Source: Pseudomonadota bacterium (GTDB lineage Bacteria > Bdellovibrionota > Bdellovibrionia > Bdellovibrionales > SG-bin7). From it: a stretch of 21,093 nt of DNA. The DNA is taken from positions 1 to 21,093 of the forward strand of contig JAWXAY010000025.1 of NCBI GenBank assembly GCA_034439715.1. The letters run 5' to 3'. Under the pieces are notes generated by a model that was given only the letters and a program-made list of their open reading frames with translations, ran no database searches and was not told the origin of the DNA. A program made the translations under genes and the position numbers. Shown one piece after another: positions 7,430-12,968 of this stretch; the stretch's first letter is position 1; every line of letters begins with the position of its first letter.

Positions 7430-8329
7430 TTAAGGTGGTGCAAGCTTTTTCAATGTAGCGTTGGTAACCTTTGCGGAAGGTCGAGTCACAATAGAGTTAT
7501 ATCCACCAAATACGAACGTCACATTTCTCATATGGCTCGGATTTTTCATGAGCCACAGAAATTCGACTCGCGTAATATTTTTGCCGTCCATCTGATAGCC
7601 CGTATCGTAAGAAAAAAGACTTCTCGGTATCAAAAATACAGTTCCCTTATCCGACAAATGTTCCATGAGAATCTCAGAGTGATTTTCTACGACTTCCCAA
7701 TCGACATTCATTTTCTTATAAGTAACTTCGAAGCGTTCGAGTTTTGCGAAGTCGGCAATGTATCCGTATTCCTCCGTGTCAAGGCCGAGTAAATTATCGT
7801 AATCACCAGGTTTGTTTGTTCGCAAAAGGTCCGGCAAGGTTATCATCTTGGCTCGATACTGTTTCATCAAGTCTAGATATTTTTTGGGGATTGTCGATTG
7901 CTGAACTTCGAATTTTAGGTCCACAGGCAGGAGACTAACGCCATCTACATTTTTGAATTCGCTTTCACTTCCATAAACGCGAATTCGAATTATTTCACTC
8001 GGGGTAATAGAACCCACCAAGAACAATTCATTTTTCTTTGAGTACCAAGTACGGCCTGGTTTGTGAATTATACCTGTTACCCATGTTGTATCTTTCATTT
8101 GAACATCCAACACGAGGTTTTTCGATAAAAGTTTATTGAGAAGTTGGCGCTTTTGAGGTGTTTTCCAGTTTTTTACATCGATATTAGAAGTACTCTTGGA
8201 AAAAAGAGTCGAGCACTGAAATTTGCGAGCCTCAGCAGTGACGACGTCGAAATTAATTGAGCAAAGCACAAATAACAAAAAAAGTCTTGCTGCCCAAGTT
8301 TTTGACAAATAACTGTTCACCGTTTCCAT
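7430..8329 (-). CDS. Exported hypothetical protein with CxxLF motif (candidate effector)
   Basis: Hydrophobic leader ending AEA, then CSTLF at aa 39-43 (8201-8215). No family recognised with confidence. Confidence 0.75.
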   Translation of the reverse strand: METVNSYLSKTWAARLFLLFVLCSINFDVVTAEARKFQCSTLFSKSTSNIDVKNWKTPQKRQLLNKLLSKNLVLDVQMKDTTWVTGIIHKPGRTWYSKKNELFLVGSITPSEIIRIRVYGSESEFKNVDGVSLLPVDLKFEVQQSTIPKKYLDLMKQYRAKMITLPDLLRTNKPGDYDNLLGLDTEEYGYIADFAKLERFEVTYKKMNVDWEVVENHSEILMEHLSDKGTVFLIPRSLFSYDTGYQMDGKNITRVEFLWLMKNPSHMRNVTFVFGGYNSIVTRPSAKVTNATLKKLAPP

Positions 8330-8362
8330 CCTAATTAATTTGAATCGACAATGGTATAGCTA

Positions 8363-8378
8363 TGAAATTATTGTGCCA
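8363..8378 (-). promoter_or_regulatory. Degenerate sigma54-like promoter
   Basis: TGGCACAATAATTTCA: consensus -24 box, -12 box reads TTTCA instead of TTGCA. Confidence 0.35.
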
Positions 8379-8557
8379 AAACCAAATGATTTTGGTCAAA
8401 GAATGGGCCGGGGAGGGGGGCTTTTGCGGTGGGGCGAGGAGCTGGAGCTTTGCTTAACGGAAAACGTCGGTATGAGAGTTCCTCTTCTAGTCGCGCCCAA
8501 TTACGTTATCCCTTTCGCTTCACGACGATGATCATCATTTTTCTTTAGCAATAATCA

Positions 8558-9763
8558 TTGCAAGACTTCCGCTTTATGTGCAAACTTTTCTATGTGCCAA
8601 ATAGATATCTATTCTTATCTTTCATTTTATTTTTTCTGGGTTGCGCTTCTAGCGAAGTTTCCACAACGGAAACAATTGCTCCACCACCTGAAATTGCTGA
8701 AATTCCAACACTTCCCGTTTCTGAAGAGTTAATTCAAGAAGTTAAAGTTGTTGATGCCGTGATTGAGCCCAAACCACACTCAGAAGTGCCTATCGAAATA
8801 AATGCTAACGTACAAAAATGGATCAGTTATTTTTCGATCAAAGATAAAGAAAGATTTAAACGCTTTCTCGAACGCGGACTCTACTATAAAGATGTGGTAC
8901 AAGGAATTCTAAGAGAGCATGGAGTCCCTACCGACCTCTATTACTTGGCCATGATCGAAAGTGGCTATGTAACACATGCAAGGTCTCGGCAAAATGCTGT
9001 TGGCGCTTGGCAGTTCATGCGCGCCACGGGCAAACATTATGGCCTTCATTCAGATCGTGATTTACTGGACGAAAGGCGAGATATTATTCGCTCCACCGAA
9101 TCGGCAGCAAAGTATTTAAAAGATCTGCATAATGAATTCGGTTCTTGGTATCTCGCACTCGCTGGTTACAATGCCGGTGAGGGCCGAATACGACGAGGCA
9201 TTCGCAAAGGAAAATCAAATGATTTTTGGAAGCTTGTGCATGCGCGAAAACTCCCGCGAGAAACCATGAACTATGTTCCCAAGTTTTTGGCAGCTGTCAT
9301 TATCGGAAAGAATCCCGAAAAACACGGATTTGAAAATTTGCATTCAGAGAAATTTCCAGAAATAGCCAAAGTTAAAATTCCGCCGCTAATACAGCTTAAG
9401 CAAATTGCAGAACTCGCGCAAATTCCACTGGCTAACTTAGTAGAGATCAATCCTCATCTCTTACGAGAAGTTACACCGCAAATTTATCCTCACTATGAAA
9501 TCTGGGCACCGAAAGACCAAGCGCAAATCATCGAAGGATTTGTGAGTCAATTAACACCGATAGAAAATGATAAAATTCCTAAGCCTTCTCGTAGTTACTC
9601 ATCAGATGAAAATACTAAATCACACCGAGTACGCTGGGGCGAGAATCTGCTATCAATTGCTAGACGATATGGACTTTCCGTATCAGCCCTAAAAAAATTC
9701 AACGGCCTCAAATCAGATCGCATATTTAAAGGCCAGCGGCTTAAATTATATGCAGTTAATTAA
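8558..9763 (+). CDS. mltD: MltD-like membrane-bound lytic murein transglycosylase (SLT + LysM); true start probably 8576 or 8594
   Basis: Lipobox FLGC. SLT motifs AMIESGY, AVGAWQFM, LAGYNAGEG and ETMNYVPK. C-terminal LysM HRVRWGENLLSIARRYGLS...IFKGQRLKL. Confidence 0.88.
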   Translation: MQDFRFMCKLFYVPNRYLFLSFILFFLGCASSEVSTTETIAPPPEIAEIPTLPVSEELIQEVKVVDAVIEPKPHSEVPIEINANVQKWISYFSIKDKERFKRFLERGLYYKDVVQGILREHGVPTDLYYLAMIESGYVTHARSRQNAVGAWQFMRATGKHYGLHSDRDLLDERRDIIRSTESAAKYLKDLHNEFGSWYLALAGYNAGEGRIRRGIRKGKSNDFWKLVHARKLPRETMNYVPKFLAAVIIGKNPEKHGFENLHSEKFPEIAKVKIPPLIQLKQIAELAQIPLANLVEINPHLLREVTPQIYPHYEIWAPKDQAQIIEGFVSQLTPIENDKIPKPSRSYSSDENTKSHRVRWGENLLSIARRYGLSVSALKKFNGLKSDRIFKGQRLKLYAVN

Positions 9764-9836
9764 TCTTTGATTTGCTTGTGTCGTTAGGATACGAGCCTCT
9801 GGCTCTTCACACCCGGCCCTCGTCGGGCAAGCGACC

Positions 9837-11984: not shown

Positions 11985-12174
11985 TTTTCACCCACATCAA
12001 GTCGTTTTCAAAAAATTGAGTAATAGAATTATATGTGAGATTATTGAAGTGGTTCGCAAATAAAACGCTACATTTTGTCTGAGAGATACAGACTTCTTGT
12101 GCCCCAAAGCTAATAGCGATAAAGAAGACAAAATTTGCCAACCAAGTGTCAAATTTTTTTACAATTTTAACCAT
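11971..12174 (-). CDS. Short ORF or gene stub consisting of leader + CxxLF with almost no cargo
   Basis: Hydrophobic leader, then CSVLF at aa 35-39 (12058-12072). GGAGAAAGAG upstream. 3' end overlaps the start of the 715-aa gene. Confidence 0.5.
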   Translation of the reverse strand: MVKIVKKFDTWLANFVFFIAISFGAQEVCISQTKCSVLFANHFNNLTYNSITQFFENDLMWVKIEKG

Positions 12175-12208
12175 TTAAACTCTTTCTCCGAACTATCAGT
12201 TCTAGCTT

Positions 12209-12224
12209 TGCAATTTATATGACA
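12209..12224 (-). promoter_or_regulatory. Degenerate sigma54-like promoter
   Basis: TGTCATATAAATTGCA: consensus -12 box, GG->GT at -24, correct spacing. Confidence 0.3.
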
Positions 12225-12308
12225 AATTAACAATCCTTCTAACATGCCGTTAGATCAACTTTAAGAAGGGTTATGGCAGGTCTAGACGGTTTTATCCTAA
12301 CAATCGGT

Positions 12309-12968
12309 CTATTGGGGAACAAGAGTCTGATATTCAATGTTCCCAATTCTCTGGGATGAGATAATTTTGAATTTCATTTTACGGGGCAGTAAGACTTCAG
12401 ATTCAGAATCAAATTTATAATTGCCAACAGTCCCTAAATTCTTGAAATCGATTGCCCTGTCCTCTGCTCTCAGCAAAATTGTGTATATTCTAAATGGTTG
12501 GTTAGCGTCGCGGATCGGGAATATTTCTACAACCTCTCTTTCTCTAGACGTCGATGTAAATGAGGAAAATTCAATGATCTCCCCCTGCCGCTGCTCCCTC
12601 CCGCCAATGAGTTCGCTTCGAAAAACGACAATTGGAGCGGCCAAAGGGGGCAAATCTTCGAAAACACGATCGAGGATAGAAACAATGGCCTTCACTTGCT
12701 GTATTTGCTCCCTACTAAGTGCGCCCTTTAGAGTATTCCGCAAATAACTGTTAATAGTATCGTAACCAACACTGTGAATGTTACTCGCTCCTTTATAGCG
12801 TTTTAAAGCATCTAACACTTCGGCTCTGAACAGGACTTCATGGATTTTTTTAGAATGTGTTGATCCACGAACTGTGAATAAGTCTTTGCACTGACCGGCC
12901 CACAATTTGTCCGCCTGTGCACTTACCAACAGTACAATTAGAAAAATAAATGTAGATTGTATCCCTAT
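12309..12968 (-). CDS. ADP-ribosyltransferase, R-S-E (VIP2/C3/exotoxin-like) clade, with CxxLF leader; start uncertain and possibly 5'-damaged
   Basis: Y..GYDTINSYLR, VVFRS (catalytic Arg), FTSTS (STS motif), ESEVLLPR (ExE). The frame stays open upstream of TTG 12929 to ATA 12968 and encodes hydrophobic TFIFLIVLLVSAQA. CKDLF at 12876-12890. Confidence 0.85.
   Translation of the reverse strand: MGIQSTFIFLIVLLVSAQADKLWAGQCKDLFTVRGSTHSKKIHEVLFRAEVLDALKRYKGASNIHSVGYDTINSYLRNTLKGALSREQIQQVKAIVSILDRVFEDLPPLAAPIVVFRSELIGGREQRQGEIIEFSSFTSTSREREVVEIFPIRDANQPFRIYTILLRAEDRAIDFKNLGTVGNYKFDSESEVLLPRKMKFKIISSQRIGNIEYQTLVPQ

Follow-up and report, generated by a model that had tools for sequence, protein, structure and literature searches.

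What is the role of a five-residue motif that recurs in exported proteins with no other obvious similarity? The question was raised by a 21,093 bp contig (JAWXAY010000025.1; contig C25 of a 3.26-Mb Bdellovibrionales genome), referred to here as the window; further contigs of this source genome also carry C-numbers. Four minus-strand open reading frames (ORFs) of the window encoded C-x-x-L-F, each behind a hydrophobic leader and a polar spacer. We have designated this motif, in the form C-x-x-[LIV]-F, the tag, and consider it to be a real sorting or attachment signal of predation-related exported proteins (probability about 0.8). The ORFs and their tags were as follows.

7430..8329, minus strand: 299-aa tagged exported protein with leader, tag, Sm/Hfq-like small barrel and possible C-terminal TIR/SEFIR-like domain
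8201..8215, minus strand: tag CSTLF, the sole Cys of the mature 299-aa protein
9837..11984, minus strand: 715-aa tagged protein (710 aa from GTG 11969) with leader, tag, WCTAG core and C-terminal leucine-rich repeats (LRR)
11871..11885, minus strand: tag CANLF, Cys at aa 34 counted from TTG 11984
11971..12174, minus strand: 67-aa stub ORF in which 28 residues follow leader and tag; unmatched elsewhere in the genome
12058..12072, minus strand: tag CSVLF of the 67-aa stub, Cys at aa 35
12309..12968, minus strand: start-less tagged ADP-ribosyltransferase (ART), Pfam PF03496 at E 4.2e-10
12876..12890, minus strand: tag CKDLF, the sole Cys of the ART frame, at aa 27

The cysteine positions (aa 39 in CSTLF, 34, 35 and 27) agreed with the original prediction made from the window alone, as did the restriction of the motif to these four ORFs: C..[LIVM]F was present in 0/12 other exported-looking proteins of the window. 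The system is, however, much larger than the window. A crude gene set of 3041 genes was drawn up for the source genome, of which 1180 were signal-like by our own hydrophobicity rule. C..LF followed the hydrophobic stretch in 10 of the 1180 signal-like genes against 0.98 expected from downstream windows, more often than by chance; 200 shuffles gave a mean of 1.61 and a maximum of 6. Two of the 10 (on C26 and C100) resembled ordinary lipoprotein cysteines. The wider C-x-x-[LIV]-F was found behind a signal peptide in about 14 proteins of the genome; these 14 N-tagged genes were picked by hand, with lipoprotein-like, membrane and weak candidates (C97, C110, C93, C67, C29) excluded.

It had been predicted that the tag is confined to N-termini, and this was not borne out, as the motif also ends proteins. 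C..[LIVM]F was present in the last 8 residues of 9/3041 genes (1.42 expected) and of 7/1180 signal-like genes (0.55 expected). Two of the 9 were cysteine-rich lipoproteins and two had no called signal peptide. About six further exported proteins of the genome end in the tag, with 0–12 residues after the Phe and no hydrophobic helix visible by eye. The Poisson tails were 9e-8 and 2e-5; relatives are not independent, so the computed P values overstate the case. These sequences place the tag on unrelated signal-bearing proteins, where it either follows the predicted signal-peptidase site by a few residues or lies at the C-terminal end.

Degenerate tags were also seen: CSDSF, CAQQF and CASSF are encoded by exported proteins at G000:C24:24937-25611, C37:4911-6965 and L173:6499-8466, respectively, so the tag set is larger than counted. 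The last of these is a second Prc-like protease and adjoins a C-tagged gene. A C-tagged exported protein of 546 aa, encoded at L170:8994-10631 (G000:C13), contains a hydrophobic hairpin rich in Gly and Ala and is a candidate pore or translocator; it was present in only 3/121 genomes of the order.

As a rule, the mature protein has no cysteine besides that of the tag. No other Cys followed the tag in 12 of the 14 N-tagged genes, whereas signal-like genes of equal length would give 3.6 (P 2.5e-6), and the 14 proteins hold 3 Cys in 6059 residues against about 1%. Because Cys counts had been seen during hand-picking, the test was repeated with a fixed rule, which gave 10/13 lone cysteines. Among other genomes, 44/56 distinct complete tagged ORFs (two evident false positives being kept among the 56) had no further Cys, compared with 16/58 untagged signal-like neighbours. 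A C-tagged family of circularly permuted ATP-grasp proteins (71 proteins) behaved likewise: 58 of its 62 signal-bearing members had exactly one mature Cys, always within the last 35 residues. The loose motif pattern fitted 45/62 of these members and distant leaderless members did not encode the motif. The tag Cys was invariant in alignments A2–A4.

These counts bear on one alternative, namely that the motif is just the usual start or end of a secreted protein, or that its Cys pairs inside the cargo as a structural cap. The motif is short, the profile described below was trained on the order, and 2/10 N-terminal and about 3/9 C-terminal matches look like chance or lipoproteins. Against this stand the Poisson tails, the lack of a partner Cys in most cargos, the unrelated folds that carry the tag and the conservation of a lone Cys across two whole families. 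A cargo-specific disulfide, which the original prediction had named as a way to be wrong, is therefore hard to reconcile with most cargos, and we regard this alternative as largely refuted and very improbable.

A lipoprotein signal was another candidate. The lipobox, of consensus [LVI][ASTVIG][GAS]-C, forms the very end of the hydrophobic stretch. It was present in 0/4 window tags, as had been predicted, and in 0/57 tags from other genomes, and identity with a signal peptidase II lipoprotein was rejected. The lipoprotein signal (lipobox, Lgt/LspA/Lnt) shares with the tag a Cys near the exported N-terminus, but the tag has a variable, polar and often charged spacer, and its C-terminal form has no adjacent signal. 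It could still be that the Cys receives an S-acyl or S-diacylglyceryl group in the periplasm, independently of Lgt, and that lipid, Leu and Phe anchor the protein to the predator outer membrane or vesicles. Such lipidation would suit a lone terminal Cys on a hydrophobic helix face that functions at either end without a partner gene, and other Cys-bearing sorting signals are thought to be modified on the side chain (10.1101/2023.06.07.544157). We consider it unlikely given the lipobox counts: the C-terminal tags are followed by neither a membrane helix nor a basic tail, no candidate enzyme lies beside the genes, and a membrane anchor alone does not bring cargos that depend on ATP, S-adenosylmethionine (SAM) or NAD to their substrates.

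The signals of the latter source are among the most similar ones known. MYXO-, JDVT-, Synerg- and CGP-CTERM, with myxosortases, are short signals in which one Cys is invariant; each is carried, within a single lineage, by dozens of exported proteins that are otherwise unrelated, and side-chain modification is suspected (10.1101/2023.06.07.544157). Unlike these, the tag has no transmembrane helix or Arg cluster, occurs also at the mature N-terminus and ends in Leu-Phe. A CTERM-type signal was rejected, as the invariant Cys was found but the transmembrane helix and Arg-rich tail were not.

The way in which a protein comes to carry the tag could be followed in the WCTAG-LRR family of the 715-aa protein. 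A search revealed 544 homologs, the named close ones being Bdellovibrionales, and the best 119 of the 544 served as the family control. Among these, 44 had both leader and tag and 67 had neither; four had the tag with the leader missed or cut short, and four had a leader without the strict motif, three of them with a degenerate Cys motif. The named leaderless homologs were mostly from Patescibacteria and Bacilli and lacked the tag, some of them being N-truncated fragments. Tagged members held 5 extra Cys in 29,976 residues, compared with 137 in 49,500 residues of leaderless members. In this family the tag accompanies the signal peptide, both being acquired on recruitment of a leaderless protein, and the cargo loses its cysteines afterwards. 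The other mature Cys of the 715-aa protein (306, in WCT) is conserved in leaderless homologs too.

A model of the 710-aa form had a mean predicted local distance difference test score (pLDDT) of 89.5, with the tag region as a helix at 27–33 of low-to-middling confidence. The LRR part aligned with 4r5c (Z 16.1, root-mean-square deviation (rmsd) 3.2, 242 aligned), and LRR matches filled the VIA list. No named family was found for the WCTAG core, for which the ESM Atlas gave unnamed clusters only and Foldseek weak GNAT-like rows (E about 0.7–2). W-C, E-x-R-G and GF motifs are invariant in the core, and members of the family come from Bdellovibrionales, Patescibacteria, reduced-genome gut Bacilli and one Nanoarchaeota record. 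The same WCTAG-LRR cargo ends a 1422-aa exported protein at L169:5754-10022 (G005:C64), in which it follows a cysteine-rich helical region, a Gly/Ala-rich hydrophobic stretch and a C-x5-C loop. This protein has no Pfam match and looks like a long-carrier polymorphic toxin; the fusion of the cargo to a long exported carrier suggests an alternative delivery route.

C-tagged genes adjoin N-tagged ones on C36 and C107 and at loci L160 and L166 of other genomes, as would be seen if tags paired with one another (N with C, or like with like) and zipped exported proteins into disulfide complexes with no need of a reader. This pairing is improbable: the window encodes four N-tagged ORFs and no C-tagged ones, many tagged genes are singletons, near-identical tags confer no partner specificity, and no C-terminal tag was found in the best 119 of the 544 WCTAG homologs. 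A complex prediction for the N- and C-tagged neighbours on C36, run without alignments, scored 0.00 and was not used as evidence.

The 299-aa protein has a paralog on C36 (45%) with the same tag, and 5/5 further homologs, all whole ORFs, bear a Cys motif of the tag kind, some of them degenerate. Its structure model (pLDDT 68) matched Hfq over residues 23–92 (VIA Z 5.4–6.0). Many TIR/SEFIR chains matched residues 141–266 with Z 4.0–4.8, which is below the reliable range of the tool; for 4nux the values were Z 4.8, rmsd 5.1 and 112 aligned. Within this domain a Glu is invariant in the 7 aligned sequences of the family (alignment A5). Foldseek with the model gave no match at E≤0.001, the ESM Atlas gave no usable match and a PDB sequence search with the alignment found nothing. 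The fold weakly suggests that the C-terminal domain is a putative NAD-cleaving TIR-like enzyme.

Profile A2, built from leader and tag of the source genome and the WCTAG homologs, turned up new tagged genes in other genomes, and a widened version, A4, was used for counting. At E≤0.05, A4 matched 100/121 Bdellovibrionales genomes with 1 to 36 matches each, the sample including genomes that encode B. bacteriovorus proteins. At E≤0.005 it matched 30/45 genomes in the order, 17/155 elsewhere in the phylum and, weakly, 3/99 small genomes of another phylum. The comparison favours the order, on which A4 had been trained. No match in two Bacteriovoracaceae genomes was better than E 0.026. Family f5 was tag-poor, with 16/28 genomes matched at E≤0.05, mostly by single weak matches, and tandem arrays of variant tags were found outside the order (G049, G070). 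A search of 1.84 billion representatives with the tag profile returned only 2 spurious repeat translations and was uninformative because the motif is too short; a PDB sequence search with the profile found nothing.

Pfam named 16 of the 53 scanned cargos and left 37/53 without a match. The named ones include three SAM methyltransferases, a nucleotidyltransferase, a class III aminotransferase, Fic, topoisomerase IB and SLOG, as well as papain-like, phytochelatin-synthase-like and alpha/beta hydrolases. Cargos of the source genome include a GH13 enzyme, an MGH1-like glycosidase, Prc, ART, ATP-grasp and subtilase. Toxin-type cargos were ART and Fic by Pfam and TIR-like, weakly, by fold; the predicted enrichment in effectors held only in part, such domains being outnumbered by glycosidases, peptidases and metabolic enzymes. 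NAD, ATP, SAM, pyridoxal phosphate (PLP) and DNA are absent from the periplasm; many of the cargos need them and others do not. Leader and tag on unrelated cargos thus amount to a conserved trafficking element with variable cargo, the element being a peptide that is sometimes C-terminal.

This arrangement had been taken for a polymorphic toxin family, which was not supported, as there is neither a conserved carrier domain nor a regular immunity gene. No immunity gene follows the 715-aa gene, and the ART and the stub are each followed by the next tagged ORF. The only candidate partner or immunity gene in the window was:

7100..7324, minus strand: 74-aa membrane ORF behind the 299-aa gene

Clustering of 674 ORFs from 97 loci around tagged genes gave no recurring small partner family, and a toxin-immunity system was rejected on both the window and the neighbour clustering. 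MafB-N of Neisseria, Microscilla-N and APD1/APD2 of Amoebophilus are, as here, lineage-specific elements between a signal peptide and a variable enzymatic cargo, with a proposed anchoring role (PMC3482391). The tag differs from these in being five residues around one free Cys and not a globular domain, in occurring also at C-termini, and in belonging to an order-wide system without a regular immunity gene and with many non-toxin cargos. The claim that did gain support is that of a sorting, loading or tethering signal with a functional Cys on unrelated exported cargos.

How might such a signal work? A lone conserved Cys on the face of a terminal helix, with other cysteines lost and a variable distance from the leader, argues for a thiol that reacts with a partner in trans. 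Once exported by Sec, the tag would fold into a short helix presenting Cys, Leu and Phe on a single face, which would dock on an order-wide reader (a carrier, a surface hub or a subunit of an export machine) and be locked there by a reversible disulfide. The load would be carried to the prey and freed by reduction, like the A chain of an AB toxin, and cargos needing NAD, ATP, SAM, PLP or DNA would act in the prey cytoplasm. Every step after export, including delivery into prey, is our inference. In full, with disulfide docking of the terminal peptide and release in prey, this version is the one we favour, at slightly under even odds; the specific two-step route, in which a Cys peptide at either end loads almost any Sec-exported enzyme on a common carrier for release in the prey cytoplasm, is more tentative. 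In AB toxins, which serve here as a model of how the tag may work, one Cys ties a cytoplasm-acting enzyme to its delivery part and reduction frees it. In the present case, however, no B or carrier subunit was identified, one generic tag serves dozens of cargos and the targets are presumably bacteria.

The tag could instead be a non-covalent holding signal, bound transiently by a periplasmic chaperone, a DsbA-like protein or the type II secretion system (T2SS), which would keep cargos unfolded or silent until export to the prey periplasm or the medium and not to the prey cytoplasm. GspK-family genes are present, T2SS and Sec are reported for B. bacteriovorus (PMC12622784), and the hydrolase cargos suit an outside destination. 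A bare signal peptide, however, sufficed to release NanoLuc to the supernatant (PMC12622784), so export as such needs no tag, and the cofactor-dependent cargos are left unexplained; we hold this to be another improbable account.

The link of the tag to predation comes from B. bacteriovorus HD100, which encodes five N-tagged proteins, among them a Fic protein with one Cys in 770 residues. The Fic protein was mapped to Bd2033 by name and accession order, a second to Bd1649 by annotation and a third to Bd2046 by its neighbour; 2/5 were without an assigned Bd number. Bd2033 is in the EntryPeak cluster with a log2 fold change of +1.77 at 45 and 60 min (PMC12546842). It is cited as a mini-Tn5 transposon predation gene, and both Bd2033 and Bd1649 are listed in the predatosome sheet, which holds about 7% of genes (PMC2797640). 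The other four tagged proteins were not found in the available tables of PMC12546842 under the accessions and names tried, one of them guessed, and the 109J tags tried were not in the supplements of PMC6561027. At L205:301-2418 of B. bacteriovorus, a tagged 323-aa protein is encoded between an exported-protein gene and a small ankyrin-like gene. The exported neighbour has Gly/Ala-rich hydrophobic helices, and the trio is possibly an effector, translocator and immunity set.

Several observations weigh against a predatory role or a disulfide tether. Inductions at 30 min were small for Bd2033 (1.63/1.37, t-test 0.057) and Bd1649 (1.72/1.24, t-test 0.21), and Bd2046 was not induced (0.95/0.93; PMC2797640). 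Bd2033 was not found in the available empty-bdelloplast proteome supplements (PMC11003981), and the number of N-tagged proteins in B. bacteriovorus, about five, is small beside its many hydrolases. No reader was identified: the 674 clustered ORFs contained no recurring machine, and a machine co-located with the tagged genes was rejected on this basis. Loss of cysteines is expected for any enzyme entering an oxidising periplasm, which does not single out a disulfide tether. Glycosidases, Prc, subtilase and papain-like peptidases could work outside the cytoplasm, signal cleavage rests on the hydrophobicity rule and not on a dedicated predictor, and no homolog of the 1422-aa G005 carrier was found in G000.

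Secretion has been called 'largely unexplored' (PMC12622784), and secreted proteins suffice to kill prey (PMC11003981). The tag looks like an undescribed address or attachment label: no description of it was found in the literature covered, which left subscription papers and bioRxiv supplements outside its scope, and 'Bdellovibrio' is not mentioned in the examined parts of PMC3482391 or 10.1101/2023.06.07.544157. As a sorting peptide that needs no membrane helix and can act at either terminus, the tag is unlike any signal compared here. It may explain how exported enzymes are routed to prey in Bdellovibrio-type predators, and any genome of the order can be screened with it for candidate effectors. 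In a laboratory strain a single residue change is enough to remove it, and it can serve as bait for the reader. If the proposed mechanism is true, the tag would act in prey killing and takeover as a portable 'A-chain' label.

The remaining features of the tagged region were as follows.

8364-8378, minus strand: sigma54-like box with 1 mismatch, 34 nt before the start of the 299-aa gene; 70/3041 genes score as well
12210-12224: sigma54-like box with 2 mismatches; 245/3041 genes score as well
12227..12300, no strand assigned: intergenic imperfect hairpin repeat of 35–70 bp, also on C88, C54 and C24
12963..12994, no strand assigned: 32-bp repeat, also on C3 and just upstream of a transposase-like ORF pair on C37
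12973..13491, plus strand: untagged, 5′-truncated remnant of a DUF2779/RNase H-like gene (profile positions 27–126), the only match in the genome

The sigma54-like boxes of the original prediction exist, as scored against a consensus, but they are weak and other tagged genes lack them; shared sigma54 control as a general rule was accordingly rejected.

Two of the four window members are probably decayed. The stub is the probable remnant of a tagged gene that has lost its cargo. The ART frame has no ATG, GTG or TTG ahead of its hydrophobic stretch and is a probable pseudogene; in the stop-to-stop frame it retains R117, STS at 139–141 and E189-x-E191, which places it in the R-S-E class, and no homolog besides itself was found among 253 candidates. 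Decay of the ART and the stub would fit a fast-turning arsenal. The 32-bp repeat occupies the junction at which the ART lacks its start and the DUF2779 gene its 5′ part, and the ORF pair beside its C37 copy is IS3-like by eye. An assembly artefact at the ART start was rejected, as contigs of runs X4 and X5 (same habitat and year, possibly one campaign) bridge the junction without differences. Copies of the 12227–12300 repeat lie mostly among genes for exported proteins; its reading as an integron cassette was rejected, no integron integrase scoring over the cut-off. Tagged genes on G000 C24, C107 and C84 lie near a repeat that ends eight contigs and is probably an insertion sequence.

Upstream of the 299-aa gene, at 8384-8455, is a 75-bp element that is 88% like a stretch on C19. 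A run of five small exported proteins, four of which start with MKHL or MKHF and none of which is tagged, is encoded at 3840-6745 (minus strand); it includes a 128-aa W-N-x-x-W-E-R-x-D-C repeat protein and a cysteine-rich DUF7107-like protein. The 118-aa His/Cys-rich protein encoded at 291-647 (plus strand), with repeated H-x-D-H-x-D, is probably metal-binding. A tRNA gene at 14942-15014 (minus strand) forms the right border of the variable region, beyond which lie housekeeping-type genes.

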